A program made the translations under genes and the position numbers. A stretch of 34,039 bases of DNA, taken from a virus (lineage: Duplodnaviria > Heunggongvirae > Uroviricota > Caudoviricetes). Under the pieces are notes generated by a model. The model made no database searches. It was not told where the DNA came from and saw nothing but the letters and a program-made list of their open reading frames with translations. Positions 1 through 24,945 of this stretch are shown piece after piece. Position 1 is the stretch's first letter; each line of letters starts with the position of its first letter. The DNA is taken from IMG/VR virus record IMGVR_UViG_2617270939_000002, one strand, 5' to 3'.

Positions 1-333
1 TCAAAACTGCGCCAATGCCGCCTCAAGAGATATCGCAGCATCAGTGCTGTTGATAAAGTGCGTCACCCGCCTCATAACCTCAGCCTCTTCAGCTGCATCA
101 CCTTCGATCGCTTCGCCGTCATCCGTGATTAACGCTTTCCCCCTAAGCTTCGCAAACTGCGTCCGACCTCCGGACAGAATCAACAGCGCATCACCCTGCT
201 GTGGGCGCGTGACCGGGACGATGATCGCATAACCCGCCGACGTCTCGAGGATGCGACTGTCGGGAGTCATGCAGACACTGGCTGGCGTAACCCGCTGCTC
301 TATATAGTCGGTAGATGGTGAAGGAAAGCCCAT
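1..333 (-). CDS. Hypothetical phage protein, 5' part only (start ATG at 333, continues past window start)
   Basis: Open frame to position 1; ATG at 331-333 preceded by GAGGG Shine-Dalgarno; no family recognised. Confidence 0.35.
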   Translation of the reverse strand: MGFPSPSTDYIEQRVTPASVCMTPDSRILETSAGYAIIVPVTRPQQGDALLILSGGRTQFAKLRGKALITDDGEAIEGDAAEEAEVMRRVTHFINSTDAAISLEAALAQF

Positions 334-376
334 GTTTACGCCCTCTCTTGAATGCTGGATAAAAACACAGTATAAA

Positions 377-396
377 TACTGTATACCCATCCAGTA
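377..396 (+). promoter_or_regulatory. LexA-box-like (SOS box) operator upstream of DinI-like gene
   Basis: TACTGTATACCCATCCAGTA fits CTGT-N8-(A/C)CAG with the CCAG right half as I recall it from E. coli dinI; lies 16 nt upstream of the ATG and just before an AAGGAG RBS. Confidence 0.45.
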
Positions 397-411
397 AAGG
401 AGCAATGAGCA

Positions 412-654
412 ATGTTCGTGGAACTCGTTTATGACAAAAGGAATTTTGATGGTCTGCCCGGTGCAAAAGATATCATTCTGGGCGAGTTGACCAGGAGGGT
501 TCACCGGATCTTCCCGGATGCTGATGTCCGGGTTAAACCGATGATGACACTGCCGGCGATCAACACTGATGCCAGCAAGCATGAGAAAGAGCAGATAAGC
601 CGTACTGTTCAGGAAATGTTTGAAGAGGCTGATATGTGGCTGATTTCAGATTAA
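412..654 (+). CDS. DinI-like DNA-damage-inducible protein
   Basis: 80 aa; translation MFVELVYDK...FPDADVRVKPMMTL...EQISRTVQEMFEEADMWLISD resembles DinI family; RBS AAGGAG. Confidence 0.8.
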   Translation: MFVELVYDKRNFDGLPGAKDIILGELTRRVHRIFPDADVRVKPMMTLPAINTDASKHEKEQISRTVQEMFEEADMWLISD

Positions 655-788
655 ACGCCTTGAACCGTCATATTGCTTAAGTACAATCCGCCGTGACTGG
701 CAATCATTCAATACTCAAACTATCGAACGTTCGTCAGTCGGCCGCAATCATGCTCCTGCATACGGCGTGGTTGCGGCAACCATCATTT

Positions 789-2426
789 TTACTCCTGAGC
801 ATCCTGCTGATTTTGCTGACGCTTATATTCAGCTTTTTCGAACGCTTCACGTGTCTCTTCTTTCTTCTGGTTCCAGATACTGTCTTCAGACATTTCCACA
901 CGCACAGACACAAAAGAATCTGCCGGAATATCGATAGGATAACCGTTCTTGGTGGTTTCAGTGAAGGTGCCGTCATCATTTCTCACGCCAATTAGATTAC
1001 GCGCAAACTCAGGAGCGTCAGGGTGGGTGCGGTGATACGTCTTCACCAGCACAGAACCATCTGGGTTAACTTCATAATCCAGCCAAATGCGCGCCTGTTT
1101 ATTTTTATCCAGAGGGATTTCAAACCCGCCATCAATACCACCCCAGGCAGCGTCAGCATTAAGCCCGTTACAGCCAGATATAAGATAATTGCCCGCAGAA
1201 ATTCGGCTAACCTTACAGCCCTCGGATTCATCATTCATTTCAGCAGTGCCGTCAGCATAAATTTTCACCACTGGTGATGCGCGCTTAATAAAGCCATTGC
1301 TGTCAACGGTTGTATTGATGTCATCCCATAAGGTTCGGGCTGTCTTAATACCCTCACTCCCGCCGCCAAGTATCCTGACCGGAGATTCTGCATTAAAAGG
1401 AAGCGAGAGGATGGCTAAGGTGTCAACGGTTTGCAAAAACAACGACGGAGCGTAATTATATATACCCCAAGTTCCGGGAATATTTTTTTCACTCCGGAAG
1501 GGAACGAGTCCATATTCGCGTAAAGAATTCGCCAGATCCGTGACATTATTTATATTATTTACGCGAATTACACCATTTGGGCGACCAATTCCAAATCCAC
1601 CTACCCCCATGACATCTCCAGCATCCAGACCGACATTTTGGGTTGCGGCACTACCTAAACCTAATTTTGTTCGGGCGCCCGATGCTGTATTTGCTCCGGT
1701 TCCGCCGTCTGCGACAGTAACCGCACCGTTGCTCCCTTTCTGTGCCAGTTTACCGATGCCAGGGATGGTTACGGTGACGGTGATCGCGTTGCCGCTAACG
1801 GTGACCGTTGCTTTTGCCCCGTCTGAGGTTGCCACGCGGAACGAGGTATCTGAGGCGCTGGCAGGGTTAACCGTCACATTGAGCGTTGTGGTTGCGCCGA
1901 CGGCCACGCTTGCCGTGGCTTTGTCGAGAGTAACGCCGGTCACGGGGATATTCGGGGTACCGCTTTCTTCTGCCAGCTCCGGCTTGCCGGTATTGGTGAT
2001 TTTCGCTGTACGGGTAATGACCTCTTTTGCCGGAATGGCTTTACCCAGGCTGCTGCACCAGCCGCGGAAAACGTCGACGGTACCGTTCGGGTATTTGATT
2101 TTGTAATAGCGTACTGAGCCATCAATAAACCATGCGACCAGGTCTTTTTGCCCTTCTTCGCCCGGCTTCCAGGCGAGGGTAAACGAGGTATCGCCAGCAG
2201 ATTTTGCCCCCTGGGCCGTCGCGTTCCAGTCGGCATCCTCGTCGTCGAGGTAAGTGTCGTCATACGATTCGGCGGTCATTTCGCCCGGCGTCAGCTCTTT
2301 GATTTTCGCCAGGCGGTTCCAGTCGATATCAGAGAGTGGGTTAGCGAAAGCGTTGCCCGTTCCGGTGTAAAGCCAGAGCGTCGTACCGGCGCCTTTTACA
2401 GGAGCAAGTGGATTTGGTGTTGGCAT
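789..2426 (-). CDS. Phage major tail tube protein (lambda gpV-like) with Ig-like (Big_2) domain and a roughly 300 aa fibre-like C-terminal extension
   Basis: N-terminus [22 protein letters not shown]...VDVFRGW matches lambda V; C-terminal [18 protein letters not shown] motif typical of tail-fibre shafts. Confidence 0.8.
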
Positions 2427-2433
2427 GTTTTCC

Positions 2434-2832
2434 TCACATTTCGTAAGTGATTGAATATTTCATATCGGCGGAGGGCCACAGCCCCATCGCATCATCGCGC
2501 TGGTAATCGAAGCCTTGTGGAACCATGAGCGTTAACAGTGAATCGAGGCCGGGAACATCAGCGAGGGCCGGATAGATATGGCTTTCCATCCATTCATCCA
2601 GTTCGGAATCTGGTACCTGCGAGGACAGGAAGACCTCGATATGTAGCGTTGCCGCCCACATATCGGCATCAAGTTCTTCGCCGGTATACTCCGCATCGGT
2701 CAGATAGACCGCGACGGCAGGAAAATCCTCCTCCTCAATGACAGCCGGGCGCCCGTCAAAAAACATGACGTCGATCCCGATGGCCTCTTCAAGCACATCA
2801 ATAATTTTCTGGCGAATGAGAGTGTGTTTCAT
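2434..2832 (-). CDS. Phage minor tail protein U (lambda gpU-like)
   Basis: 132 aa; [16 protein letters not shown]...FFDGRPAV...[17 protein letters not shown]...IEVFL matches lambda gpU along its length. Confidence 0.9.
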
Positions 2833-2848
2833 CGTGTCAGATGCAACC

Positions 2849-3268
2849 TCAGTTGTTGCCTGAGGGCATATCCATATCCAGAAGAATGCCGTCTACACCC
2901 GGATCGCTGATTGCCTGCTGGAGGCGGGCGATGATGCCGTTGTACCCCGTCATCCCCGAATACGGCTGGAGTGAGCGGGTTTTACTGACCAGCGTCCCGG
3001 AAACAGGCAGCACCGCGATACCATCAGTAACCTGGTAGCTTCGCGCTGGTTTTGGGCCCATGTCCTCATCATCACCAAAGAGAGCCAGCGGTTCAGCCAT
3101 CTGCTCTGCACCTAGCGTCACGCCCGACACGGTGTCGGTCAGACGGGTGATACCTAACTGACCAGCGAGAGCACAAAAGAAAACCCGCGCATAGGCGGGT
3201 TCAAGTAAAAGCGGCTCATTGAAGGCCATACTGGCAATGTGCGGGAGATTACGCAGCTCTGGCGTCAT
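2849..3268 (-). pseudogene. Truncated S49-family prohead protease (lambda gpC N-terminal about 140 aa only)
   Basis: MTPELRNLPHIASMAFNEPLLLEPAYARVFFCALAGQLGI...YSGMTGYNGIIARLQQAISDPGVDGILLDMD matches gpC N-terminus; ORF stops long before expected length and abuts gpU. Confidence 0.75.
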
Positions 3269-3971
3269 CGGTCCCCTCCTCATTCGATTTTTTCAGTCCA
3301 GACTCAAAGGCCGAAGCCGCCCACGCTGGCGGTTTAAGTCCCGCTGCGCGACGCTCCATCGTTTCGCGAACCTGCTGGGCAAAGATTTCCTGATAATCTT
3401 CCCCCCGTTTGGCGCATTCCTTCTCATAGGTGCTCAGCCCAGCCTCAATGAGCATGACAGCCTCCTGCACCTCCTTCAGACCGTCAATGGCCATTCTCCC
3501 GGAGCCGATCCAGTCTGCATTTCCCCAGGCGCTTCTCGCCTCCTGAAAACTGAATCGGGCTTTAGACGGTAGTGTCACCACCCGGCGAACAATGGCCTCT
3601 TCCAGCCAGCATAAAAACATCTGACAGGCCTGGCGGGAGGCAACAAATTTGCGGCGCCCCATAAAGTACGCCCAGGACTCGTTAGCACTGGCGCGGGCGG
3701 TGGAATAACTCATCTGCGAATAGTTGCGAGAGAGTTGCTCATACGACACACCCAGCCCTGCAGCAATGTAGCGCACCTCCTTCCGTAATTTCTCATTCTC
3801 AATCGCCGCGTCGCGTGCGGAATACCATTCGATAGCCGCGGAAGATTCATAGAGGACCTCATTACCTTTTCCACCGCCACGTGCTACAGGCATTCCCTGA
3901 TCCTGCCAGTTCTGAATGGTTCGCACGCTGACCCCAAATATTTCAGAAAGACGCTTTTTGTTGACCTCCAT
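3249..3971 (-). pseudogene. In-frame fusion of terminase small subunit Nu1 N-terminus (about 66 aa) to portal protein gpB C-terminal region (deletion of terminase large subunit, W and most of B)
   Basis: MEVNKKRLSEIFGVSVRTIQNWQDQGMPVARGGGKGNEVLY is Nu1-like; downstream NYSQMSYSTARASANESWAYFMGRRKFVASRQ... is portal-like. Confidence 0.75.
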
Positions 3972-4148
3972 AGCTCACTCCATACACAAAAACAGAGAAA
4001 GGAAACGCCCTCTGGCTATTTAGCCGTTTTTAAGGCTTATCATTTCCTTTCTTTTCAGGGGGTGTTTACAGTTAAAACAATGAATTAGCGAGAAGAAGAA
4101 CGGAAACGGCAAATGCCTGAAAATTTTCATAAATAGCGAGAATCTGCG

Positions 4149-4160
4149 AGGTCGCCGCCC
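4149..4160 (-). other. Lambda-type cosN cohesive-end sequence (GGGCGGCGACCT on minus strand) with adjacent cosB-like sequence
   Basis: Reverse complement of 4149-4160 is GGGCGGCGACCT followed by TCGC...TCGCTATTTATGAAAATTTTC, about 180 bp upstream of Nu1 start as in lambda. Confidence 0.7.
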
Positions 4161-4218
4161 CGTAACAAGGCGGATCGCCGGAAAGGACCCGCAAACGATA
4201 ATAATTATCAATTGCATA

Positions 4219-4947
4219 CTATCGACGGCACTGCTGCCAGATAACACCACCGGGGAAACATTCCATCATGATGGCCGTGCGGACATAGGAAGCCAGTTCA
4301 TCCATCGCTTTCTTGTCTGCTGCCATTTGCTTTGTGACATCCAGCGCCGCACATTCAGCAGCGTTTTTCAGCGCGTTTTCGATCAACGTTTCAATGTTGG
4401 TATCAACACCAGGTTTAACTTTGAACTTATCGGCACTGACGGTTACCTTGTTCTGCGCTGGCTCATCACGCTGGATACCAAGGCTGATGTTGTAGATATT
4501 GGTCACCGGCTGAGGTGTTTCGATTGCCGCTGCGTGGATAGCACCATTTGCGATAGCGGCGTCCTTGATGAATGACACTCCATTGCGAATAAGTTCGAAG
4601 GAGACGGTGTCACGAATGCGCTGGTCCAGCTCGTCGATTGCCTTTTGTGCAGCAGAGGTATCAATCTCAACGCCAAGCGTCATCGAAGCGCAATATTGCT
4701 GCTCACCAAAACGCGTATTGACCAGGTGTTCAACGGCAAATTTCTGCCCTTCTGATGTCAGAAAGGTAAAGTGATTTTCTTTCTGGTATTCAGTTGCTGT
4801 GTGTCTGGTTTCAGCAAAACCAAGCTCGCGCAATTCGGCTGTGCCAGATTTAGAAGGCAGATCACCAGACAGCAACGCGCCACGGAAAAACAGCGCATAA
4901 AGCACTTCATTAGCAGCGCCAGATAGCGTAATGATTTTGTTACTCAT
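4219..4947 (-). CDS. Hypothetical phage protein (242 aa) between moron region and cos
   Basis: ATG at 4947 with AAGGA RBS; long ORF; no family recognised. Confidence 0.6.
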   Translation of the reverse strand: MSNKIITLSGAANEVLYALFFRGALLSGDLPSKSGTAELRELGFAETRHTATEYQKENHFTFLTSEGQKFAVEHLVNTRFGEQQYCASMTLGVEIDTSAAQKAIDELDQRIRDTVSFELIRNGVSFIKDAAIANGAIHAAAIETPQPVTNIYNISLGIQRDEPAQNKVTVSADKFKVKPGVDTNIETLIENALKNAAECAALDVTKQMAADKKAMDELASYVRTAIMMECFPGGVIWQQCRR

Positions 4948-5332
4948 GGAATATTTCCTTTTAGGCGTGAGCCTGTCGCACGGCAATGCCGCCCGAGAGG
5001 TAAACGCAACCTAACGGCATCACCCAGGCTCACTACTGAAAGACTCTCTTTGATGTGCGCGTGCGATGCGCGTAGAAGACTGATTTATCAACCTGTCTTT
5101 ATATCAGGATTCATTACCTGACTATTTGTGGGTAAAGTTCGTAGTGCGCTGATCGTGCAAAATGATTTTAGTTGGGAACAGTTCGCAACTCTGTCCCATA
5201 AAAATCAGCATATTCCCATCTATCCCATATCCAGCGCATTGACCATCGGGATACTGAAGGGAGATTCCATCATCTCTTAGAAAGATCACCATCTCTTTTG
5301 TTTCAATTTGCATATAGCTACCTGGAGGATTT

Positions 5333-5947
5333 ATGAATGCAAGGATTTTCATGGACTATTACCATGAGATTGATTTTCCATCTTTATTCGCGAGAGCAGT
5401 GGAAAGCGATGACGATGTGGGTACTACATTGCGCATTCACCTACTTTGTGAGCGCATGGTCGAAGCATGGATATGCGCATGCTGTGACTGCCAAGATCTC
5501 TTTGGAAGAGATAAAAACAAACTTTTAATCGAATGTAATACTAAAATATCCATGGCGGGAAACCTGGGAATCCCCCCGGAACTTATGAAATCACTTAAAA
5601 CCATCAACTCAATGCGTAATGACCTTGCACACAATCCATCAATACAAAGCATTGCTGATTCAAGGATCCAGAGCCTGAAGGATACTCTGACTGAATACTT
5701 TAAACAGCATCCAACGGAACCCAGCATGGAAGAATCAAAACTGGGTATTTTTAACGCCGAGAATCAATTAACCGAAGAAGTTTCCTTAGATAGTGACAGT
5801 TCAAAAAACAGACTTAAGTTAATCTTGCTGTTCAGCAAGTTAATGCAGGCGTTAATGCAATTAGTTGCAGCTAATCATAATGGGCGCTGGGATAACCAAT
5901 TTAGCCAATTCGTTTACCATGTGACCATGAACGCAACAAAGAGATAA
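5333..5947 (+). CDS. HEPN-like (Rx4H motif) protein, candidate abortive-infection/toxin RNase moron; alternative start at 5351
   Basis: Motif SMRNDLAHN (R-x4-H) in a predicted helical protein; opposite strand to surrounding phage genes; AT-rich; followed by hairpin terminators. Confidence 0.6.
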   Translation: MNARIFMDYYHEIDFPSLFARAVESDDDVGTTLRIHLLCERMVEAWICACCDCQDLFGRDKNKLLIECNTKISMAGNLGIPPELMKSLKTINSMRNDLAHNPSIQSIADSRIQSLKDTLTEYFKQHPTEPSMEESKLGIFNAENQLTEEVSLDSDSSKNRLKLILLFSKLMQALMQLVAANHNGRWDNQFSQFVYHVTMNATKR

Positions 5948-5983
5948 ATCCAAGCCCGTTTTGTACGGGCTGTTGCATTATCA

Positions 5984-6014
5984 CAGGCACTCAGTGAATG
6001 CCTGCTGTAATGCC
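5984..6014. repeat. 31-bp direct repeat copy 1 (contains hairpin CAGGCA-N9-TGCCTG)
   Basis: caggcactcagtgaatgcctgctgtaatgcc; second copy at 6371-6401 with one mismatch. Confidence 0.6.
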
Positions 6015-6030
6015 CGTCGTGATGACCATT

Positions 6031-6092
6031 AAAAAAGCCACTCGAAAGTGGCCTTTGTGATGGCAATAAAAAACCGCCCGTAGGCGGTTATA
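6031..6092. terminator. Two tandem hairpins flanked by A/T runs (bidirectional rho-independent terminators)
   Basis: gccact-cgaa-agtggc (6037-6052) and ccgcc-cgta-ggcgg (6074-6087), each with A-run upstream and T-rich downstream. Confidence 0.5.
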
Positions 6093-6108
6093 TTCAGCAG
6101 GTCGCATG

Positions 6109-6273
6109 TTATCTGTGAATGACAAACAGCGATTTACATTTAGGGCAAAGTAACGCCTGTTGTTGGCGTACTTTCGTGGTCGAGTGTGTGGATTTATGTC
6201 CGCATATCGGGCACATGACAGTCGTATTGGCTGCAAGCCCAACACGCTGCATTGCATAATCGAAAAATGACAT
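6109..6273 (-). CDS. Small zinc-ribbon protein (54 aa, two CxxC pairs)
   Basis: Own translation MSFFDYAMQRVGLAANTTVMCPICGHKSTHSTTKVRQQQALLCPKCKSLFVIHR; ATG at 6273; terminators immediately downstream; below the 60 aa ORF-track cutoff. Confidence 0.45.
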   Translation of the reverse strand: MSFFDYAMQRVGLAANTTVMCPICGHKSTHSTTKVRQQQALLCPKCKSLFVIHR

Positions 6274-6370
6274 GGTGGTTAACCTTTCAATGAATGGGGC
6301 TTATTATACCATGCATAGCTCAATTATTAATCAATCATCATCGCATGCTTGATGCCATTTAACTTTGTCG

Positions 6371-6401
6371 CAGGCACTCAGTGAATGTCTGCTGTAATGC
6401 C
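6371..6401. repeat. 31-bp direct repeat copy 2
   Basis: caggcactcagtgaatgtctgctgtaatgcc. Confidence 0.6.
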
Positions 6402-6714
6402 TGCTCAGCCAAGTTGAAGCACACCGTGTTCTTTTGAATCAGAGAATGCAACAAACCCAGTGTATTCGGGGATAGTGTTCCGTCATCAGCATCAAATGCT
6501 GAAATGGTTGCGTGAAGAATCAAAAATGCTCCAAATCCCGCGCCGCTGCTGCCCCTCGATGGTCAGAATCGTCAAGGAGGACCCGTTAAAAGGTAAGCAG
6601 AAAATCTGTGGTTAGAAGTGAAGGCTTTGACAACGTTCTAAATTTTATGACAGAAATAAAAAAGCATTACCTTTCAAGATAATGCTTTTTCACTCGAACT
6701 GAGTCTTATAACAA

Positions 6715-6888
6715 TTAGATTAATGTGATTTTAATATCATAGCTTTCAAGCCCAGTCATTTTTTCACGAGCATTAAACTGGATATCGGAAACTTCTTTTC
6801 CTGTCTTTTTTTTGAGTTCAATAATTTTTTTTGTGATGAATTCAGAAATATCCGCTTCAGTTTTTCTTTTTAAATCTTCGACGTTCAT
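6715..6888 (-). CDS. GnsA/GnsB-family small protein (57 aa)
   Basis: Own translation MNVEDLKRKTEADISEFITKKIIELKKKTGKEVSDIQFNAREKMTGLESYDIKITLI closely resembles E. coli GnsA/GnsB; RBS GAGAGGT. Confidence 0.8.
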   Translation of the reverse strand: MNVEDLKRKTEADISEFITKKIIELKKKTGKEVSDIQFNAREKMTGLESYDIKITLI

Positions 6889-7092
6889 TGTTTACCTCTC
6901 TTGATCTCTAACGTATCAACGCCAGGCATGTTACATTCCCCGTAGAGCACTTGTATAAGCGCTGATATGTTTAAAAGATAGAATAGAAAGACTCAATTAT
7001 CAATAGTTTGCAGTACAATCTTCATGCAAAAGAGCTCGCGACCACACAAACCACTGTACTAAAATCCGGGTCGGTCACGAAACAACCAGATC

Positions 7093-7323
7093 TCATTTCA
7101 AAAGCTTCGAGGCTGCCTCGAGGATCTCTTCTGAACTGACATCACGATCAGAGGCTACATAAACTATTTTATGGTCTCCTGTCAGAGATGGAAATCCCGC
7201 TGACATCACGGGTAGGTGTGCTTTTTCCCCATTGGGAAACTCACGCATTATCGTAGTAATACCTTTCATTACGGTTACAACAACTGCTGGTTCTGCATTA
7301 AAAAAAACGATGACTTTTTTCAT
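7093..7323 (-). CDS. Hypothetical small protein (76 aa)
   Basis: ORF with MKK start; weak RBS; no family recognised. Confidence 0.4.
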   Translation of the reverse strand: MKKVIVFFNAEPAVVVTVMKGITTIMREFPNGEKAHLPVMSAGFPSLTGDHKIVYVASDRDVSSEEILEAASKLLK

Positions 7324-7396
7324 AATTTTACCGTGATGTCTCTTACAGAGATTGTCGGTTCAGCATACAAAAAAGGCTCCATAAGGAGCCTGAAAT

Positions 7397-7612
7397 TTAT
7401 TTTCTGAATTCTAACGAAGACTGACCAGAACGAATGTACAGTGCAATATTATCAAATGTAATCATTGTTGATTTGCAAAAAATACATTTTGCTCCGAAAG
7501 GATTTTTTTCAGTAACATCAAAGTTTGACGTTCGGTACTGAGATCCGTGGCAACACGGACATCTGAAGTGAATATTATTAGTAATAACAGTTACCTTATA
7601 CAGCCACGACAT
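7397..7612 (-). CDS. Hypothetical zinc-ribbon-like small protein (71 aa; CPCC...CIFC)
   Basis: ATG at 7612; two Cys pairs about 22 residues apart; overlaps 3' end of csp gene by 17 nt; weak RBS. Confidence 0.3.
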
Positions 7613-7808
7613 TAACTGCCGTGGGGCCTTTAGGTCCCTGTTCAACACTAAATTCAACTTCCTGATTCTCATTCAACGTCTTGAAATCATTACTCTGGAT
7701 AGCAGAGAAGTGAACAAACACATCTTTACTACCATCTTTTGGAGTGATAAAACCAAAACCTTTTTCAGGATTAAACCATTTAACTAAACCAGTCATTTTA
7801 TTAGACAT
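7596..7808 (-). CDS. Cold-shock protein, CspA family (CspB-like)
   Basis: [53 protein letters not shown]... ; long AT-rich upstream leader typical of csp genes. Confidence 0.9.
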
Positions 7809-8240
7809 AAACATTACCTTTATTGAGTAAGCCCTTGGGCAGAATGGTCCGAAAAAAAATTATCAGAGAGAAAAGCTAACAAGGAAATCTCAACAGGAAC
7901 AAGGAATAAAATTATTACAGCGACTGCTTCAGATAAATTCGTTACAAACCAGACATTCATTAACGCATGATTAACCAGACATAGCAAGGTTTAGTTTTGT
8001 AAGTAAATCTCAGTGGGTTTTGATCTTAAAAATTAATTTAAATAGCTTAAATCGAAAATTATGTCATGCTGCGTAAGACCTTTATCTATCACCCTAAGTT
8101 GTCAGGGATTTTGACTCAAGGAAGAGTCGTATTTCCTTCATAGTAAAAATTCACAAATTTATCCACGAAAACCGTCAACATCTTAATTTATAGAGCTATT
8201 ATTTTTCCTCTACGGTTCATTGTTAGTATTTTTACGGACT

Positions 8241-8345
8241 CATAAATCCGCTCACATGTCATTCCTGCTCGGTAGTTTTCATCAGCGCGTTCAGCATGGT
8301 ATCGAGCTTCTTCTGCCAGGCTTCCTGGCATGTCTACGAGCATTG
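8241..8345 (-). pseudogene. Orphan 3' fragment duplicated from the gene at 9196..9669 (about 105 bp, about 80 percent identical to 9237..9341)
   Basis: Direct sequence comparison of the two stretches (ctcaca(t/c)gtcattcctgc...atcgagcttcttctgc...). Confidence 0.55.
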
Positions 8346-8380
8346 TGGTGTCATGGCGGATGGAAAGTTATGTTGATTCG

Positions 8381-8584
8381 TTAGTTATCGAGCTGTAGAA
8401 CGCTATGCTCTAGCGACTCGGAATAGGCAATCAGCCCGGTGTACTCAGGGATAACCTCGCCATCATCCGCTTCGAACTCAGGGATTGTTCCGGTAGTGAT
8501 GGTATATTGTGGCTGGCCATCTTCTTTTGCGAAGGCAGCCAGGTCTTCAATCTGCTTAGCTGTAAGAACTACTGTAATGCTCAT
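8381..8584 (-). CDS. Hypothetical acidic small protein (67 aa)
   Basis: ORF only; SD very close to ATG. Confidence 0.35.
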   Translation of the reverse strand: MSITVVLTAKQIEDLAAFAKEDGQPQYTITTGTIPEFEADDGEVIPEYTGLIAYSESLEHSVLQLDN

Positions 8585-8968
8585 TCCTCAGTTGTTAAAA
8601 AGCCCCGCTATTGCGAGGCTTGATTGATTATGGCTAACGACTACATCGTAACGGTTATAAAAGAAGCTATTAGCCAACATGTGGTGTATGGTTGTTAACC
8701 GCCCACCAGGACAATCAACATGTCGATACTCAAAGATATCAAGATGCGTACTTTACGCCATGTGAAAAGTACTTGTCCTCATTGCTCCCGCCAGTCAAAG
8801 CACAGTCTGTCGAGAATAAAAAACAATATAACGTTAATTTGCCCCTTCTGTGGAAACATCTATCTTCCATCGGAAAGCAAACCAATAAAGTAACTGATTG
8901 ACTACCAAATAAAACTCATACTCTCAGAATGTGGCAAAGCAGACATAACCTTTTATTGTTGTTCTCAT

Positions 8969-9199
8969 TTAAGAGAATGTAACACCCAGAGTGGAGAGGT
9001 TTTTTTTCTTCTCCACAATACGGCGATCAAGTTCAGCCACTGCATGCGGGCGTATGGCATCAAGAAAGGCGTTATCCTGATAGGTAGACTGGATTGTCAC
9101 ACCAAGTCCGGCACCACTTTCCAGTATGCTTTTCTGAAGTTGTAGTTCTTTTATATCGTTATTGAGGTAATACGCTTCACTTAGGTTTTCTGCGTTCAT
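8969..9199 (-). CDS. Hypothetical phage protein (76 aa)
   Basis: ATGA start/stop overlap with upstream gene suggests translational coupling. Confidence 0.5.
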
Positions 9200-9669
9200 C
9201 TTCTAACCCTGTTGTTGTTTGACTGCCTCACTGAGTCGTAAATGCGCTCACACGTCATTCCTGCCCGGTAGCTTTCGTCAGATCGCTCAGCATAATATCG
9301 AGCTTCTTCTGCAAGGCGTCCGAGCATGTCGGCGAGCACTGCGGCGTCGGCTCCGGCTGTTTTGCTTCTGACGGCAGTGGCAAGATCTGCGGTGTGCTTT
9401 GCGGCGTCCAGGCGAGTGGCAAGCTTTGTTGCTTCGGTACGCAGCTGGTTAACAGTGGCAGACAGGCCAGCAGCAGTGGCAGCGGATTTACCGACAATAA
9501 TTGCCCAGTCACTCAGGCTTAACCCTGCAATTCTGTCGGCCAACATCCAGGACACCTCTTTTGCTGTTTTAGCTGTTTCGGCATATGCCTTCGCTGATAC
9601 ACCGCAGCCGGTCAGCGTGGTTCCTGTTCCATATGAAAGTCTGCTGTAAATGGTGCTCATTCTGGTCAT
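9196..9669 (-). CDS. Hypothetical phage protein (157 aa)
   Basis: ATG at 9669 preceded by GGAGGTGAGG; Ala/Thr-rich helical protein. Confidence 0.6.
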
Positions 9670-9912
9670 AGCCTCACCTCCGATTATTCGGATGGCGCTG
9701 TGTGTTTGAAAAGGGTCAGGCTTCACGGGCTGGATTTATCAACAAAGCACGTAGCGGATGATTCCCGTGAGCCTGAAATAGAAAAGGCCACGCAAATGCG
9801 CAGCCTGTAACCAGAAATCAATATTGTCTTTACATCAATTTTTCTTAAGGTTAAATTCTTCTGACAAGTTGATGAAAGACAACTTGAATATTAGCTATTT
9901 GTTCTCTGTTAT

Positions 9913-9939
9913 GCCCGCAACCCAATGCGGGCTTTTTTT
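9913..9939 (+). terminator. Rho-independent terminator (gcccgca-acccaa-tgcgggc followed by T7)
   Basis: Perfect 7-bp GC stem followed by ttttttt on plus strand in an otherwise gene-free interval. Confidence 0.55.
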
Positions 9940-10113
9940 CGCCCTGCTAAAAGTTCCACCGTTGTGAGCCTTTTTGCTATGCAATAATGGATGCGTGGTG
10001 CCGGGTGTCTCCCGGTGATCCTTTGGCTGACAACCCATGCCTCACGAACATTTCACAACGGGATATAGAAAAGGCCATGCATTTGCATAGCCCTGAAAGA
10101 TGTTTATGCTTTA

Positions 10114-10611
10114 TTAATTCGCTGGAATATCTGGCATGGCGCGATCCATAGAAGAGCTAATTAACGCCTTAATAGCGTTGCATACCTGATAAAATCCACC
10201 CAGCTGAGATGAGACAGAAAAACGGGAGACGTCGTCTCCTGAGCCTACTTCAGCATAAAATGATGAGTTCTCATACCAGAGTGAGATGCTTACGCCCTGC
10301 CTGTAGCCACCTGTTAGCGGAGAATCATCAAGAGTGGTTGCAATCACGAAATTCAAGTGGTAACGGCTGTCCATATTGAGTTGGGGGATTAAGACAGGAA
10401 AGAACTTCCCCTCCTCCTCCCAAATACCAATGTCCACATAAGGCCATCTTGTTCCGTCAGAACCAGTCCACTCACGAGATGTAAGATCAAGAGAACCTGA
10501 ATACTCTCGTAGTAGTTCGCTCGCCTTCTCCTGAAGTTTATCCTGTAACTTCCATTGCGCCTCGACCAGTTTAGTGCGTTTTTCTTTCAGATCCTTAAAT
10601 GTTAATTCCAT
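10114..10611 (-). CDS. Hypothetical phage protein (alternative start 10647)
   Basis: ORF; ATG at 10611 with GGAG upstream. Confidence 0.5.
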   Translation of the reverse strand: MELTFKDLKEKRTKLVEAQWKLQDKLQEKASELLREYSGSLDLTSREWTGSDGTRWPYVDIGIWEEEGKFFPVLIPQLNMDSRYHLNFVIATTLDDSPLTGGYRQGVSISLWYENSSFYAEVGSGDDVSRFSVSSQLGGFYQVCNAIKALISSSMDRAMPDIPAN

Positions 10612-10836
10612 GCCACTCTCCAGACAACTTTTGAAAGGAATCTGCATAGTAACTCACCCTGAAAGCACATGGTTATATTTCACTTACACTGAGTGCGAAA
10701 AGCAAAAACCCCGCCGAATGGCAGGGTTCATAATCAGTTTCATTTGGATGCACGTATCCATGATTAGAAGCATACACGACAACTTCGGACAAAATCAAGC
10801 CCTGCGTCACGAAAATGCTAAATATCACGCGTATCG

Positions 10837-11037
10837 TCACACAAACTGGTCATCACCTGGAAGCTGCATTGTGATTTTCACAATGGAGGTCTTAAAGCGC
10901 TGTTTTAGCTTAGTGAACTGTGAGGCCCAATCCATGCCCATGCCGTCAATGATCGGCTTCATTGGGGTATACGGCTCACCATTGCGATTCACAACATAGA
11001 GTGCATTTCCGTGGAACGGGACGGTAATTGTATTCAT
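10837..11037 (-). pseudogene. Antirepressor N-terminal domain fragment (P22 AR N-term/Ant-like), truncated after about 66 aa
   Basis: MNTITVPFHGNALYVVNRNGEPYTPMKPIIDGMGMDWASQFTKLKQRF resembles phage antirepressor N-terminal domains; much shorter than typical. Confidence 0.45.
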
Positions 11038-11318
11038 AGCGTTTTGCCTTACTTTGAGATGAACCTTTGCCGCACAGGAGATCAGCCCGTCGAGGCTCGC
11101 CAGCACTAACTGACTCCTCAACGGCTCATTCCAAAAGGTTGGGTTCGACGTGATTGAATGCGCTGCGGTGCGCGGTGAAATGCAGATACAAAAAAGCCCC
11201 GGTATTAAACCGAGGCTTATAATTCTTTCTCTTTTTCAGAGAATGCGGATTAAAGAACGTGCTTCATTGCTGGTTTCATCACAGCTTGGCACATATTTAC
11301 TACTTTCATTTCTCATTT

Positions 11319-11540
11319 TCAATTTATTTTTTTTGCACAGTTAGCCTGCACTGATTTATTGTGCACCAATATGTCCCGCTTCGTCTGCTTATCCAGCACG
11401 GCAATATCGTGTTCAGTGAGGTAGATAATGTCCACCCAGTCACAGGCTGTGTCCGTTAATTCAGGTTTTGCGGGTAAAGTTTTCGCGCAACTCACGGTCA
11501 ACATCGTCATCAGGAAGATGATTAACAGTTTGCTGTACAT
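11319..11540 (-). CDS. Lipoprotein, putative o-spanin (Rz1-like), overlapping 3' end of upstream gene in another frame
   Basis: Signal peptide MYSKLLIIFLMTMLTVSC with Cys lipobox; overlap architecture typical of spanin pairs; position downstream of endolysin. Confidence 0.45.
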   Translation of the reverse strand: MYSKLLIIFLMTMLTVSCAKTLPAKPELTDTACDWVDIIYLTEHDIAVLDKQTKRDILVHNKSVQANCAKKIN

Positions 11541-11730
11541 CCCTGGCTCCTTTTGTTGTCTCTACCCGGCGTTCAGCAACAGCTTCAGTAGCTGTTGCAC
11601 GTTCTTCAGTGCGCTGCTGATCGGCTTTGGCTTCCGCTTTGCTGGTGCCGCGTGAATGACCAATGCCAAAAGCACCAGCGATAGCTGCCATTATCAGGGC
11701 AGCAATACCGACGATTGTTTCTAATCCCAT
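11461..11730 (-). CDS. Small N-terminally membrane-anchored charged protein, putative i-spanin (Rz-like, short)
   Basis: MGLETIVGIAALIMAAIAGAFGIG TM segment then charged coil; GAGGT RBS; immediately after endolysin. Confidence 0.45.
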   Translation of the reverse strand: MGLETIVGIAALIMAAIAGAFGIGHSRGTSKAEAKADQQRTEERATATEAVAERRVETTKGARDVQQTVNHLPDDDVDRELRENFTRKT

Positions 11731-11737
11731 AGTGACC

Positions 11738-12367
11738 TCACACCAGCACAGACTTCGCCAGGTTAAACAGCGCGCGGCGTTTATCCAGCCCGTTACGTCC
11801 GCCATTGATAAGCAGCGTGACGCGCTCCACATCGCCTGAATGGAGCAGGCATCCGTGCGAGACGTAGAACCATGCGGCGGAGCGCGCAGCGTATTCATCT
11901 CGTTCCAGTAGTTCTGGATACGAAACCAGATCCAGTTTGAGAGCCTGGCCGCAACTGCGATAGTTGCTAAGCCCGGTGATTTGCTTAAGGCCTCGGCCGC
12001 GATATTTCCAGCCATCACCAGCAACCTGGTTGCCCAGGTTCTTTTTGCCCCACTCACCGCCGTAAACCAGATTGGCTATCGCTTTCTGATTTGCCGGTTG
12101 CGTTGCCGTTCTGCCGAGTGCGGCGGCCTGCTGCGCAGTAATGCGATGCTTGCCGAACGTAGGTACCAGGTTTTCTGCCGCATAGTTCAGGTTTTCCACC
12201 AGCCGGGTGAAACCGCCGGACTCATGGCCCATCTGCGCGATAAACATGGCCTGATCGAGCGGCGCGGTTATGCCGAATTCCTTCACTGCAGCATCGATAT
12301 GCGAAAACCAGCGCGAAGCGAGCCCGGCGCTAATGCCAGCCGCCTTTTGAAATTGTGATTGGTTCAC
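11738..12367 (-). CDS. Phage endolysin, glycoside hydrolase family 19 (chitinase-like lysozyme); GTG start (alternative ATG at 12415)
   Basis: MFIAQMGHESGGFTRLVENLNYAAE...GRGLKQITGLSNY motifs; GTGA overlap with upstream gene stop. Confidence 0.8.
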   Translation of the reverse strand: MNQSQFQKAAGISAGLASRWFSHIDAAVKEFGITAPLDQAMFIAQMGHESGGFTRLVENLNYAAENLVPTFGKHRITAQQAAALGRTATQPANQKAIANLVYGGEWGKKNLGNQVAGDGWKYRGRGLKQITGLSNYRSCGQALKLDLVSYPELLERDEYAARSAAWFYVSHGCLLHSGDVERVTLLINGGRNGLDKRRALFNLAKSVLV

Positions 12368-12645
12368 GTTGTGCTTTCCCCTGCTATTCTTGCGATGTTG
12401 CCACGTGCTCGCCATACAGCTATGCAGACAACAAGGTTGACGACCAACTCTCCGTAGTCGACCTGCACGTAATCACCATGCCAGATGCGGAAAGCGGTAA
12501 ACGCTGGAGCGAGGATCAGCCCATAGGCCAGAAACTCCATCAGACGGCGGCGCCGTAAGCTCCGCTTCCTGAAGAACATCAGGCGTATGGTGATGAGGAT
12601 GCATGCAACAGCGTTAATGTTCAGGATCAGTGTTTGCCACGTCAT
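12364..12645 (-). CDS. Small two-TM membrane protein in lysis cassette (holin partner/antiholin candidate)
   Basis: Hydrophobic segments plus RKRSLRRRR basic patch; ATGA coupling to the upstream holin-like gene. Confidence 0.5.
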   Translation of the reverse strand: MTWQTLILNINAVACILITIRLMFFRKRSLRRRRLMEFLAYGLILAPAFTAFRIWHGDYVQVDYGELVVNLVVCIAVWRARGNIARIAGESTT

Positions 12646-13046
12646 TCTTCCCCCTTCAATCCGGGTAAGTCTCCTGTCTTCGACCGTTTGAGGATGCGAG
12701 CCAGGATGGTGACAGAAACCGATGAAGCCAGCAGGGCACCCATAGCTGGAGATACCTTCACGGAAACTGGAGGAGAAAGGTGACTTAATGCCGCATTGAT
12801 TAGCGCAGCGATGATTTCAGATGCTGTTCCGGCGCAGTAGACTCCACCAATGAATGAGATGAGCGCGAACAGTATCTGCTTCCAGATTTTGTGGTCTTCA
12901 CTGCTCAGGACATAAAGAGCAGCCCCGGCAAGTGAGCAAAGCATTACAGCGGGTGTCGCTTCTGGAAACATCGTCGCGAAGGTGATTCCGGTAGTGCCGG
13001 CGGCCACGCCTGCCGTTACCGTTGCAGATATCGGTTCTGCGGACAT
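12642..13046 (-). CDS. Putative holin (134 aa, multi-TM with charged C-terminal tail)
   Basis: ATG at 13046 with GAGGGGG RBS; TM-rich with C-terminal KRSKTGDLPGLKGEE; first large gene of lysis cassette. Confidence 0.55.
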   Translation of the reverse strand: MSAEPISATVTAGVAAGTTGITFATMFPEATPAVMLCSLAGAALYVLSSEDHKIWKQILFALISFIGGVYCAGTASEIIAALINAALSHLSPPVSVKVSPAMGALLASSVSVTILARILKRSKTGDLPGLKGEE

Positions 13047-13156
13047 TTTGCCCCCTCTTATTGCTGTTGATCCTCTCAGAAGGTTGAGGGGAAACAAAAA
13101 AGGCCACCGTGAGGTGGCCTATATATGATTGAAATTTTTGATTTGGTAAGGCTTGA

Positions 13157-13351
13157 TCAGACCGGCAATGCCTTCGGCTTGCCCATGTGATATGTAACAA
13201 GGCTGCTTTTGCTGCCATCTTCCCAGACTGTAGAGCTCTCGGTGATCTTCAAAATCACCCAGCCTTTAGAAAGGCCCAAATTGACTTGCTCCACATCCTC
13301 TACCGTCCGTACTTCCTGAATTTTACTCAACAAGTTTTCATCTGCGCTCAT
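13157..13351 (-). CDS. Hypothetical small protein (64 aa), first ORF downstream of tR'-like terminator
   Basis: ATG at 13351 with GAGGG RBS. Confidence 0.4.
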   Translation of the reverse strand: MSADENLLSKIQEVRTVEDVEQVNLGLSKGWVILKITESSTVWEDGSKSSLVTYHMGKPKALPV

Positions 13352-13413
13352 CAACTGACCCTCAGTTAAAAAACACAACATAACAAACGCATTGAAGAAA
13401 AACCTTGCTGGAA

Positions 13414-13442
13414 ATAAAAAAACCCGCGCTGAGGCGGGTTTG
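13414..13442 (-). terminator. Rho-independent terminator on minus strand upstream of lysis genes (lambda tR'-like position)
   Basis: Minus-strand hairpin aaacccgc-ctcagc-gcgggttt followed by TTTTTTTATTT. Confidence 0.5.
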
Positions 13443-13829
13443 ATGTCGTGTAGGCGTAATATCCCACGATGGAAAGCATACAGGACATTTTTATGCAAAG
13501 TCAACACTAACGTGCAAAAAAGTGTCGCTACCGTAACCCGTACCAGACCCGCCACACATTCGCCACCAGACACATTAGCCAGGGCGTAAACCTTTTCTGG
13601 CTTGCCGGGCAGATGGGGCATAAAGGGCCGGAAATGCTGTTCCGCAATTACGGTAAATACCTGGCTGAATACGACGGGAAAACCGCCATTTCAGCAGCTC
13701 TGTAGCGTCGTGAGTATTTCAAAATGTTGGACGGAATCAGGACGTTAGAGGGACCACGATATGCACGTAAAATGCACTTGAGGCCTTTCAAAAAAGACAA
13801 AACATTAATATTCAATAGGTTAAGCATTA

Positions 13830-13864
13830 TTCGGACACGGGTTCAACTCCCGCCAGCTCCACCA
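13830..13864 (+). other. 3'-terminal fragment of tmRNA (ssrA)-like sequence ending in CCA; att core, not an intact RNA gene
   Basis: TTCGGACACGGGTTCAACTCCCGCCAGCTCCACCA matches the E. coli ssrA 3' end as I recall it (one difference); upstream sequence does not match the ssrA body. Confidence 0.7.
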
Positions 13865-13899
13865 AATATTGATGTACTGAAGTTCAGTAAAGTCTACTA

Positions 13900-13932
13900 A
13901 GCCCGCACAGCACAAGCTCTGCGGGCTTTTTT
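13900..13932 (+). terminator. Rho-independent terminator following the ssrA-like 3' end
   Basis: agcccgca-N12-tgcgggct followed by TTTTTT. Confidence 0.65.
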
Positions 13933-14030
13933 ACGTCTATTGTAGTCTAGTGAGAATTGCTGAGAACTACGAGTTATGGCACCCTGAATGGGACCCACGA
14001 AGATGGGTCCTAAAATCGAGGGTCCCAAAC

Positions 14031-15260
14031 ATGGCCAAAATCGCTAAGAAGCTCACTGACACTGAAATCAAAAGCACCAAACCTGCCGAAAAAGAGGTTA
14101 ACCTTTTTGACGGCGATGGTTTGCTGTTGCGAATCGCTCCCCTGGCGAAGGGAGGGAAGAAAAATTGGTATTTCAGATATGCAGTGCCTGTGACCAAAAA
14201 GCGAACTAAGGTGAGCTTAGGAACCTATCCTCACCTTACACTTGCGAAGGCACGAGCTTTACGTGATGAATACTTGTCGTTGCTTACAAATGGTATAGAC
14301 CCCCAAGTTCATAACAACCAAAAAGCCAATGCACTGAAAGATGCCACGGAACATACATTTCAAGCAGTAGCCAAGAAGTGGCTTGATGAGAAAGTCAAAA
14401 CGTCAGGCATCTCCCAAGATCATGCTAACGACATCTGGCGAAGCCTAGAGAGAAATATCTTTTCCACATTGGGTGATACCCCAATTAAGGAGATTCGCCC
14501 TAAAATGCTTAAACAGCATTTAGAACCCATAGAAAAACGAGGTGTCCTTGAAACACTTCGCCGCATCATATCCCGCCTGAATGAAATTTTCCGCTATGCA
14601 GCAACAGAAGAACTCATAGAATTCAACCCGGCAGACAACCTGGGGCAACGGTTCAGCAAGCCAAAAAAACAGAATATGCCAGCATTACCCCCTTCCGAAC
14701 TCCCTCGCTTCTTGGTTGCTCTAAACAATGCTTCTATCCGTTTGGAAACAAGGCTACTGATTGAGTGGCAACTTCTCACATGGGTTCGCCCAGGTGAAGC
14801 TGTTCGCACAAGATGGTCAGATATTGATATTGAAACTGGCATGTGGAACATCCCGGCGGAGTTTATGAAAATGAAGAAGCCTCACAAAGTTCCACTGAGC
14901 AAAGAAGCTTTGCGAGTTTTGGATTTAATGAAAGTCATCAGCGGGCATAGAGAGTGGGTGTTCCCCAGTATCAAAGCTCCACTCAATCACATGCATGAAC
15001 AAACAGCTAATGCGGCCATAATCCGTATGGGTTTCGGAGGTGAGCTTGTAGCTCACGGTATGCGATCCATTGCTAGAACGGCTGCTGAGGAGTCTGGCAA
15101 GTTTAGGACTGATGTCTTAGAAGCCGCCCTTGCCCACTCGAAGAAAGATGAAATAATTGCAGCCTACAATCGTGCAGAGTATCTCACTGAACGGGTGGTT
15201 CTCATGCAATGGTGGAGTGACTATGTTTCGTCTCAAAAATGCAAAGTTATTGCCGCATAA
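14031..15260 (+). CDS. Tyrosine integrase, P4 family (IntA-like), 409 aa
   Basis: MAKIAKKLTDTEIKSTKPAEKEVNLFDGDGLLL...WYFRY... N-terminus and C-terminal HGMRS...LAHS...Y catalytic region; adjacent to ssrA-type att. Confidence 0.9.
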   Translation: MAKIAKKLTDTEIKSTKPAEKEVNLFDGDGLLLRIAPLAKGGKKNWYFRYAVPVTKKRTKVSLGTYPHLTLAKARALRDEYLSLLTNGIDPQVHNNQKANALKDATEHTFQAVAKKWLDEKVKTSGISQDHANDIWRSLERNIFSTLGDTPIKEIRPKMLKQHLEPIEKRGVLETLRRIISRLNEIFRYAATEELIEFNPADNLGQRFSKPKKQNMPALPPSELPRFLVALNNASIRLETRLLIEWQLLTWVRPGEAVRTRWSDIDIETGMWNIPAEFMKMKKPHKVPLSKEALRVLDLMKVISGHREWVFPSIKAPLNHMHEQTANAAIIRMGFGGELVAHGMRSIARTAAEESGKFRTDVLEAALAHSKKDEIIAAYNRAEYLTERVVLMQWWSDYVSSQKCKVIAA

Positions 15261-15542
15261 CTCTCCCATGATGGATTAACTATCTTGATTTAGTTAAAGA
15301 ATTAATAATCACACCATTAACCTATGTGGACTAAGCATAGCCATTTACAAATGGGGACATTGAGTCCACATAACGAAAGCTGTCGGTCATATCAGCTAAA
15401 TAATTCACATCTCTTCTCGATTATCATACACCTCGAAGATCTACCAAATTCGCTCTAATCAATGATAAAACAGTTGAATTCGGTTAAAATTTGATCAATT
15501 TTATCCTCTACATTGTATTGAATCATCCATGAGGTTTCGTGC

Positions 15543-17099: not shown

Positions 17100-17985
17100 A
17101 AAAAATGAATTCCCAATAATTCAAATTGAGATTGCAAAAATAAAATTTCTTAACCCACGAACAAGAAATAAGTTAGTGCATGAAGAAATAAAGGAAAGCA
17201 TAAAAAAAAGAGGATTAAGCAAGCCTATAAGCGTAAGAGCTATTGATGAAGGCGATTTCAAATATGCTTTAATTTGTGGTCAAGGGAGAATAGAGGCTCT
17301 CGTTGCATTAGGTGAAACTATTATTCCAGCAATTATAAGAGATGTATCAGAAGAAGATGCTTACGTTATGAGTTTAGTTGAAAACATTGCAAGGAGAAGA
17401 CCACGTTCTAATGAGTTATTACAGGTGATTAAAGACATGAAAATCAGAGGACTTTCAGACTCCGAAATAAGTGAGATTACTGGATATTCATCGAACTGGG
17501 TGAGCAGTATTAATATGCTACTTGATAAGGGAGAGCATAAACTTCTCTCAGCAGTCGAACGGGGTAATTTGCCTCTGTATCTCGCAGTGCAATTTGCAAG
17601 ATGTGAAACTGAGGAAGCACAAGATATTCTTACCGAAGCATATGATAAAAAATTAATAAAAAGTCGGGACATTATAAAGATAAAACACATTCTAAATCAA
17701 AGAACAGTTGGGAATAAAGGTGCAAAAGCAGCCGGATTTTATTATCACAAACCATCAAAAAGGATGACTGCAGAGGAGTTGATTGAGCTTTATGAAAATA
17801 GTATCGCTGAACATAAATCTGTTTATAACAACTCAAAATTCATAAAAACCAACCTACTAATAGTAAATGAGATTTTTAACATCATAATGATGAATAAAAG
17901 CTTTCAACATATACTTGAACAAGAGAATCTTTCAGAACTACCATCTCAGATATTAACCCCAATAAACAAAGAGGTATTAAAATGA
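17089..17985 (+). CDS. ParB-like N-terminal domain protein with HTH (paralog 1)
   Basis: ISVRAIDEGDFKYALICGQGRIEALVALGETIIPAIIRDVSEEDAYVMSLVENIARR matches ParB/Spo0J N-domain pattern; 11-nt overlap with recombinase. Confidence 0.7.
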   Translation: MLPEKNEFPIIQIEIAKIKFLNPRTRNKLVHEEIKESIKKRGLSKPISVRAIDEGDFKYALICGQGRIEALVALGETIIPAIIRDVSEEDAYVMSLVENIARRRPRSNELLQVIKDMKIRGLSDSEISEITGYSSNWVSSINMLLDKGEHKLLSAVERGNLPLYLAVQFARCETEEAQDILTEAYDKKLIKSRDIIKIKHILNQRTVGNKGAKAAGFYYHKPSKRMTAEELIELYENSIAEHKSVYNNSKFIKTNLLIVNEIFNIIMMNKSFQHILEQENLSELPSQILTPINKEVLK

Positions 17986-19532: not shown

Positions 19533-19552
19533 CTTCGCTTGTACAAGCGAAG
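19533..19552. repeat. Perfect 9-bp inverted repeat around a central TA dinucleotide (CTTCGCTTG-TA-CAAGCGAAG)
   Basis: Read directly; the 2-nt spacer argues for a DNA-level protein-binding or crossover site rather than an RNA hairpin. Confidence 0.6.
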
Positions 19553-19587
19553 ATCCTATTGTTCTTGAATGAATAATGCCAATTATA

Positions 19588-24931: not shown

Positions 24932-24945
24932 TGTATATTCCCAAT

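Follow-up and report, generated by a model that had tools for sequence, protein, structure and literature searches.

Cryptic lambdoid prophages that keep the packaging site cos together with the 5′ end of the small terminase gene nu1 are already known in Escherichia coli; DLP12 is one of them, and Qin is a comparable element of strain K-12. DLP12, also of K-12, is a defective prophage with lysis genes, cos and nu1 that makes no particles; recombination with infecting lambda has a hotspot at its cos, which probably stimulates the exchange, and its nu1, R and Rz genes are functional once transferred to lambda (PMC3945230). Here we describe a further example, a remnant of about 15 kb at the 3′ end of ssrA, which lies in IMG/VR virus record IMGVR_UViG_2617270939_000002; the whole stretch that was analyzed, 34,039 nucleotides, is called the window. 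The remnant is likewise defective and retains lysis genes and cos, but it lies at ssrA, has other deletion end-points, carries a nu1 that breaks off after codon 66 and runs on into the portal gene, and is known from sequence alone.

Three further systems invite comparison. The likeness to phage phi80 (JX871397) is close: of the 269 bp between a point 80 bp upstream of cosN and the Nu1 start codon, 268 are identical, all 66 retained Nu1 residues match phi80 gp1, window 3774–6014 (2.2 kb read across cos) is 97.9% identical, and the fibre and dinI genes stand in the same order. However, phi80 is a complete, viable phage with another integration site, whereas the remnant at ssrA is dead and lacks equivalents of phi80 nucleotides 388–3900, 4812–8561 and about 9665–21957 and of the entire early region. 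In the partial prophages MF532 and MF713 of Feiss and colleagues, a chromosomal fragment with cos serves as a start or stop site for the terminase of a helper (PMC4669245); those experiments placed a second prophage in tandem, giving two cos sites one genome length apart, whereas the remnant shows one. The E. coli phage-inducible chromosomal island EcCICFT073, likewise about 15 kb long, has a cosN of the lambda/phi80 type, on which lambda and phi80 can act (PMC6092414). Unlike the remnant, it has intact int, alpA and pri-rep genes, lacks genes for structure and lysis, has a cosB of its own, and replicates to concatemers.

With a probability of about 90%, we regard the remnant as a dead lambdoid prophage, carried by one E. 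coli lineage, in which at least four illegitimate deletions have accumulated and cos has survived. Its gene order is collinear with intact lambdoid phages, as seen in blocks aligned to phi80, lambda and L002, an intact prophage of E. coli EC2001; a duplicated att sequence at the tmRNA gene flanks it, and a complete tmRNA gene, with smpB after it, is found 1.2 kb past window position 1 in L003 and related loci. Together with the truncated integrase gene, these features bear out a first-pass annotation of the window, which had called positions 1–4250 a lambdoid prophage remnant. Genes essential for excision, replication and morphogenesis are lost or truncated, as in a defective prophage, and no AlpA, primase, repressor or O/P-type gene occurs among the called genes (L003–L006). 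The remaining genes cannot excise, replicate or assemble a particle. The late region is a mosaic, phi80-like in cos and Nu1 and again in the U-V segment, whereas its portal-protease segment resembles a set of prophages from Citrobacter and E. coli.

The deletion junctions (Table 1) were mapped by DNA alignment with L002 as the reference, and also with phi80 and, as the first-pass annotation had proposed, lambda. The module is of the phi80/lambda/N15 type, and these three references yielded complete maps. Three window blocks occur in the same order in L002, namely 1772–2874 (95.3% identity), 2865–3775 (99.9%) and 3774–4216 (98.2%), and the L002 DNA between them, 3763 and 3515 bp, has no window counterpart. 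In phi80 coordinates, 387 is joined to 3901 and 4811 to 8562, and the V match stops at 9664; what is retained corresponds to 1–387, 3901–4811, 8562–9664 and roughly 21958 onwards, the last position being an estimate from protein alignments within the fibre gene. Relative to phi80, about 19.6 kb of head and tail DNA is missing in total. The three late-region junctions remove TerL, W, the N-terminus of the portal protein, the core and scaffold parts of the protease, D, E, FI, FII, Z and G through J. With the large terminase subunit, capsid and most tail genes lost, no particle can be formed, as had been supposed at first reading. No insertion sequence (IS) element was found at junctions A and B, both of which lie at microhomologies of 2–10 nt; that at A is imperfect and 10 nt long (GGCATAGCCA versus GGCGTATCCA in a three-way junction alignment). 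A TCACCG microhomology at junction C is plausible but unproven, because the true parent of the fibre part was not found; its best DNA matches are 67–75% identical. At junction D, the int stub, with 95–97% DNA identity to phage integrase 3′ ends from about 13522, is joined to sequence found upstream of holin genes in related phages, and a fourth deletion therefore took the remainder of int, every early gene and Q.

Table 1. Positions of the remnant's features, of its deletion junctions and of genes in the adjoining island (window coordinates)
Feature	Position	Strand	Details
Remnant, extent	1-13832 + 1.2 kb left of position 1		
umuD-like cargo gene, intact, 110 aa	1..333	-	PHROG UmuD-like 1e-40; same position in Flotzy
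dinI-like cargo gene, intact	412..654	+	Pfam DinI 5.4e-21; adjoins fibre gene
Side tail fibre, C-terminal two thirds	789..1772	-	Pfam Phage_tail_C_2 2.1e-56; PHROG tail fibre
Junction C	about 1772		gpV codon 218 to about codon 121 of tail fibre; in frame; about 12.3 kb lost relative to intact relatives
gpV major tail protein, codons 1-218	1773..2426	-	tube domain and most of Ig-like domain; Pfam Phage_TTP_12, Big_2
gpU tail terminator, intact, 132 aa	2434..2832	-	Pfam Phage_tail_U 1-130/130, 2.4e-58
Z, last 14 codons and stop	2829..2874	-	between gpC stub and gpU; out of frame with C′
gpC (S49 head protease) stub, 139 aa	2849..3268	-	133 native residues (2870-3268), then MPSGNN and stop; native start at 3268
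Junction A	2865-2874		gpC codon 133 to last 14 Z codons; out of frame; about 3.75 kb lost relative to intact relatives
Fusion open reading frame, 240 aa	3249-3971	-	Pfam Phage_Nu1 (1.5e-34) and Phage_portal_2 (3.8e-13); PHROG small terminase and portal
Portal (gpB) codons 357-530 and stop	3249..3773	-	joined in frame after Nu1 codon 66
Junction B	3774/3775		Nu1 codon 66 to portal codon 357; 2 nt (CA) shared at 3774-3775; in frame; about 3.5 kb lost relative to intact relatives
Nu1 codons 1-66	3774..3971	-	nearly whole winged-helix DNA-binding domain; native ribosome-binding site
cosB	3993..4108	-	R3 4092-4108; I1 about 4059-4091; R2 4036-4058, inverted; R1 3993-4010
cosN, 12-nt cohesive end, lambda/phi80 type	4149..4160	-	GGGCGGCGACCT; single exact window match
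cosQ side	4161..4215	-	7-bp cosQ GGGTCCT at 4184-4190
phi80-like right-end genes upstream of cos	4219..6014		PHI80_66 homologue 4219-4986 (-); PHI80_63 homologue 5333-5947 (+); PHROG matches
Tyrosine integrase, last 64 codons	13511..13705	+	translation contains RHTFAT...MLFRNYGKY
Junction D	about 13522-13530		inside int to just upstream of holin; all early genes and Q removed
att, duplicated ssrA 3′ end, 32 nt	13833..13864	+	GGACACGGGTTCAACTCCCGCCAGCTCCACCA; far border of the remnant of about 15 kb
P4-type integrase	13950-15260		island
Large serine recombinase	15543-17099		island
Two ParB_N/RepB proteins	17089-18878		island
MobA/VirD2-type relaxase	28694-29953		island

Positions 1–4250 had been described as bearing in-frame deletion scars. 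Two of the three junctions there are indeed in frame, but junction A is not, and the excess is not beyond chance (p ≈ 0.26, 7/27). In-frame joining as a sign of selection was considered and rejected, the chance expectation being about 1 in 4 and a protein search being blind to out-of-frame fusions. The described scars also did not include the third one, the join of gpV to the fibre, and positions 1–654 are not scarred but hold two intact cargo genes. Near junction A, gpC had been said to stop after about 140 amino acids directly next to gpU. The length is nearly right, whereas the neighborhood is not, since the last codons of Z intervene; the stub ends after six foreign residues because the junction is out of frame. 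It still matches the PHROG head maturation protease (9e-48), with Pfam finding no S49 domain left in it, and the gpC of L002 has 445 residues. Downstream, gpU is identical to that of L002 at 130 of 132 residues, and the U-V segment is about 93–95% identical to phi80.

The same layout occurs well beyond the window. The exact 240-aa fusion protein of junction B was found on 172 contigs in 332 index blocks (NCBI, ENA and Logan), all from E. coli and one of them 5.2 Mb long, and four loci fetched from different samples are 99.98–100% identical to the window over 14 kb and across all junctions; they therefore belong to one near-clonal lineage. These counts also bear on whether the junctions might have arisen in assembly, by the joining of fragments of intact prophages in a chimeric contig. 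Repeated lambdoid prophages often break short-read assemblies, and none of the junctions occurs in the 5426 complete RefSeq E. coli genomes; but recovery of the same layout in so many independent assemblies leads us to reject an artefact, whose probability we regard as negligible.

Junction B gives the fusion open reading frame (ORF) its two parts, and the in-frame joining of the Nu1 N-terminus to a C-terminal portal segment, claimed at first reading, is confirmed by Pfam, PDB and the L002 alignment. The 68-residue DNA-binding domain of lambda gpNu1 (1J9I) matches fusion residues 1–67, and the lambda portal (8K38) matches residues 63–240, equivalent to portal 356–533; Nu1 and the portal protein are not present as separate intact genes. 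The portal part shares 99.9% DNA identity with the portal genes of prophages L001 and L002, and the portal-protease segment matches other prophages at 99.9% identity but phi80 at only 83.5%. A search for homologues yielded three more in-frame Nu1::portal fusions (P0054, P0031 and P0086), which keep Nu1 residues 1–103, about 1–158 and about 1–167; the contexts of P0054 and P0086 are other decayed lambdoid prophages, one of them at the Qin site, with cosN 189 nt upstream. Also found were Nu1 stubs with frameshifted tails (P0131 and P0134) and an in-frame fusion of Nu1 to a TerL fragment (P0138). Because the junctions share no position and a protein query recovers in-frame joins only, which biases the apparent recurrence, the recurrent fusions probably reflect repeated loss of the large terminase region and not a conserved architecture. 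Deletions that remove the large terminase gene but keep cos and the 5′ end of nu1 are thus a repeated event in E. coli remnants.

Other remnants document comparable histories in the same operon. At the Qin site in other strains, relatives L013–L015 carry a Nu1::portal fusion and further scars. L013 (8001–11559) has Nu1::portal, intact C and D, and an E that is cut short beside a gene for tail-fibre assembly, and L016 (8001–13296) has Nu1::portal followed by the genes from C to Z, with Z shortened and abutting L. In both, independent multi-deletion scars have formed and the large terminase gene is gone.

The second in-frame fusion, at junction C, creates an ORF of 545 aa at 789–2426(−). Its gpV part is 100% identical to the gpV of phages Flotzy and LLS, with V homology stopping after codon 218, and its fibre part is 46% identical to the Flotzy fibre from about residues 108–121 on and 45% identical to the HK140 fibre. 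We regard both fusion ORFs as by-products of the deletions, still open because the deletions are recent. A different view would make them domesticated genes: Nu1::portal would bind the cosB of incoming phi80- or lambda-type phages or poison portal and terminase assembly, acting as a packaging-interference defence, and the gpV::fibre protein, too, might be under selection. Such a view could point to the retention of residues 1–66 of the 68-residue DNA-binding domain behind a native ribosome-binding site, to the three other in-frame fusions with their different junctions and, in two cases, a cosN at the native distance, and to the intactness of both ORFs in most carriers. Yet two in-frame joins in three are unremarkable, the list of fusions is skewed by an in-frame-only search and is accompanied by out-of-frame Nu1 stubs, and the Nu1 portions, ending at residue 66, 103, about 158 or about 167, have no architecture in common. 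Expression of the fusion is without support, because Q is absent and promoter-like sites are not enriched (a consensus scan for an operon promoter gave 6 sites versus 6.0 expected). Moreover, the fusion ORF is frameshifted in one variant (P0050), the V::fibre alleles are only one to three amino-acid substitutions apart, too few to test selection, and the 99.9% identity to live phages points to a recent origin. Domestication is therefore very improbable, and chance formation followed by little time for decay is the reading we keep.

The cos site stands out from this decay, and the claim that cosN survives proved correct: its sequence matches exactly once in the window, whereas shuffles lead one to expect 0.04 matches. 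Base pair 1 of cosN precedes the Nu1 ATG (at 3971) by 189 nt, a spacing like that in lambda and phi80. Its left half (GGGCGG) is conserved and lambda-like, and the cohesive end is identical to those of lambda and phi80. The 7-bp cosQ is conserved in lambda, L001, L002 and phi80 by alignment, in line with its conservation among lambda-like phages (PMC4669245); apart from one base further upstream, the cosQ side is the same as the phi80 region annotated cosQ/R4. With cosB subsites defined as in PMC4669245, R3 (CGTTTCCGTTCTTCTTC) is exactly that of lambda at bp 53–69, including bp 56, 58 and 59, with no indel between R3 and cosN; Feiss et al. attribute a critical part in recognition to these base pairs and to the R3-cosN spacing (PMC4669245). 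Relative to lambda, R2 and R1 are conserved, the entire cosB stretch is 100% identical to phi80, and binding of IHF at I1 is expected. The retained Nu1 has Gln20 and Asp24, compared with Gln20 and Glu24 in lambda. The site is thus structurally intact and of phi80/lambda type, and its near-identity to phi80 cos suggests that it would function in cleavage and packaging. In this connection, plasmids with cloned phi80 or lambda cos sites are transferable by both phages (PMC6092414).

Within one cosB type, the cohesive end itself can change. Prophages L001 (13799–13810) and L002 (18655–18666) have an end of the N15/phiD326 type (GGGCGGCGTCCG) in cos regions that are 98% identical to that of the window, a natural swap at cosN bp 9 and 12 relative to window 4149–4160; natural variation at these two positions has been described (PMC4669245).

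What a helper phage might do with this site can be outlined from known requirements. During growth of a phage of phi80 or lambda specificity, its terminase would bind cosB and nick the chromosomal cosN, stay on the cosB/Nu1 side and move leftwards through the scars, dinI and the umuD-like gene, 5.3 kb to ssrA, beyond which translocation would run into smpB, recN and grpE. Without a second cos one genome length away, packaging would remain unfinished. The expected products are a cos-specific chromosomal break and unfinished heads resembling the lambda "doc" particles that Sternberg and Weisberg reportedly described in 1975. Recombination with the infecting phage would be stimulated near cos, allowing phages to pick up remnant DNA, and efficient transduction would not be expected. 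The first-pass annotation had suggested that a helper could package the adjacent DNA; initiation is indeed plausible, but completion would need a second cos, and no second cosN was found within 10.9 kb downstream of cos. Efficient transduction is unlikely because cos-type terminases need a second cos to finish (PMC6687093) and none was seen: cosN and cosB suffice for initiation, cosQ and cosN at the downstream cos are needed for termination, and partial prophages with cos serve as packaging partners only in cos-to-cos tandems (PMC4669245). Co-resident helpers can package defective prophages in O157 (PMC2669165), but those prophages still excise or co-amplify, and the ssrA remnant by itself does neither.

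A related idea is that the element is a helper-dependent satellite, a phage-inducible chromosomal island (PICI) or similar hitchhiker that keeps cos for packaging in helper capsids. Its size of about 15 kb, its functional-looking phi80/lambda-type cos, like that by which EcCICFT073 is mobilized by lambda and phi80 (PMC6092414), and its position next to an island with a P4-type integrase would all suit such an element. Its gene content, however, argues for a decayed prophage: its own integrase is down to 64 codons, alpA, primase-replicase and regulator genes are absent among the called genes, and its lysis genes and structural fragments are collinear with those of intact phages, whereas PICIs are defined without these (PMC6092414). 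It also occupies a prophage att site at ssrA and has a full phage cosB, unlike the cosB of EcCICFT073. We reject PICI or satellite identity on these grounds, considering it extremely unlikely, and judging by the gene content, helper-induced excision, replication and high-frequency transfer of the remnant are implausible.

Two more specific roles can be imagined for what survives, and we think either of them quite improbable. The remnant keeps both ssrA att copies, and integration of a phi80- or lambda-type phage in tandem would give a pair of cos sites bracketing the region; alternatively, the fusion would act as a decoy for cosB. If the first were true, a tandem at ssrA in the same orientation would turn the remnant into a natural site at which in situ cos-to-cos packaging of its cargo and neighboring DNA starts or stops; if the second were, the Nu1 DNA-binding domain joined to the portal C-terminus would interfere with such phages.

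Several points weigh against reading the element simply as a dead prophage reduced by successive deletions. The alignments indicate at least four deletions, whose order and independence cannot be shown; intermediates carrying only some of the junctions did not turn up. Of the "several independent deletions" first proposed, the three separate junctions in 1–4250 are confirmed, and they may or may not go back to separate events. No parent phage of the remnant was identified, and the exact crossover of junction C is hence uncertain. Cutting of the chromosomal cos is likewise predicted only from its near-identity to phi80 cos. The sequence covered ends 10.9 kb downstream of cos, and a second cos at 35–50 kb is possible. 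Finally, a Nu1 part that ends almost at the domain border, in company with two long open fusion ORFs, is readable as selection, although chance and recency explain it.

Decay of the remnant has not stopped. In strain L006 another 3.46 kb is gone, window 9207–12665 (L006 4766–4768), and the remnant lineage is still losing DNA. A complete lysis cassette at 11461–13097 consists of two holins, a GH19 endolysin and a spanin. A second, truncated lysis cassette is represented by a DUF2514/Rz-like ORF (9196–9726), of which only the C-terminal half matches, and lies with an N-terminal fragment of an antirepressor; this cassette and the L006 deletion therefore mark additional scars beyond the region 1–4250.

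Besides scars and lysis genes, the remnant contains a cold-shock/Gns cluster and SOS-type cargo. A scan of Rfam for structured RNAs returned only a cspA thermoregulator, outside the 1–4250 region (RF01766, 141 bits, 7537–7953(−)); it lies upstream of the prophage cold-shock gene, and the pair is typical of a Qin-like cold-shock/Gns cargo cluster. The dinI-like gene has the same place beside the fibre gene in Flotzy as in phi80. Between the divergent umuD-like and dinI-like genes are two LexA-box-like motifs of the form CTGT-N8-CCAG, at 355–370(−) and 379–394(+); the window contains three such motifs, against 0.54 expected, and a LexA consensus scan allowing up to 3 mismatches gave zero hits. 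Predicted LexA sites are annotated at the equivalent place in phi80, and the arrangement suggests that the surviving cargo genes may be SOS-regulated.

Directly after the duplicated ssrA 3′ end begins a low-GC (31–34%) integrative island that occupies window 13833–30900 and continues beyond. The island is mobile, since it has different neighbors in L010 and L011. It holds a candidate defence cluster at 20613–24931(−), in which a 722-aa UvrA-like ABC ATPase (PADLOC mad3, 2.8e-44) is followed by two ThiF/E1-like proteins (PADLOC E1-E2, about 1e-16 to 1e-18); to our knowledge, this combination is not a named system. A DUF4928 gene is cut to its C-terminal half (25611–26156(+), breakpoint 25633/25634), and about 1.8 kb, which in the otherwise identical islands L010–L012 codes for a C5 DNA methylase and the N-terminal part of DUF4928, is missing from the window. 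A restriction-modification pair was thus probably deleted in the window strain. An IS3-family transposase pair (HTH_Tnp_1, then rve; 32805–34039(+)) runs off the right end of the window.

Beyond annotation, the significance of the remnant is slight: it is a mapped example of lambdoid decay in which deletions at microhomologies struck the morphogenesis operon and spared cos. It would be of greater interest only if cos or the Nu1 fusion proved to be functionally selected. The ORFs of 240 and 545 aa, which pipelines call "phage portal protein" and "phage tail protein," are deletion chimeras and need to be flagged as such. During growth of phi80- or lambda-type phages in this lineage, a phi80-like cos in the chromosome is likely to be a recombination hotspot and a cleavage site, which would be relevant to the use of these bacteria as hosts or indicator strains.

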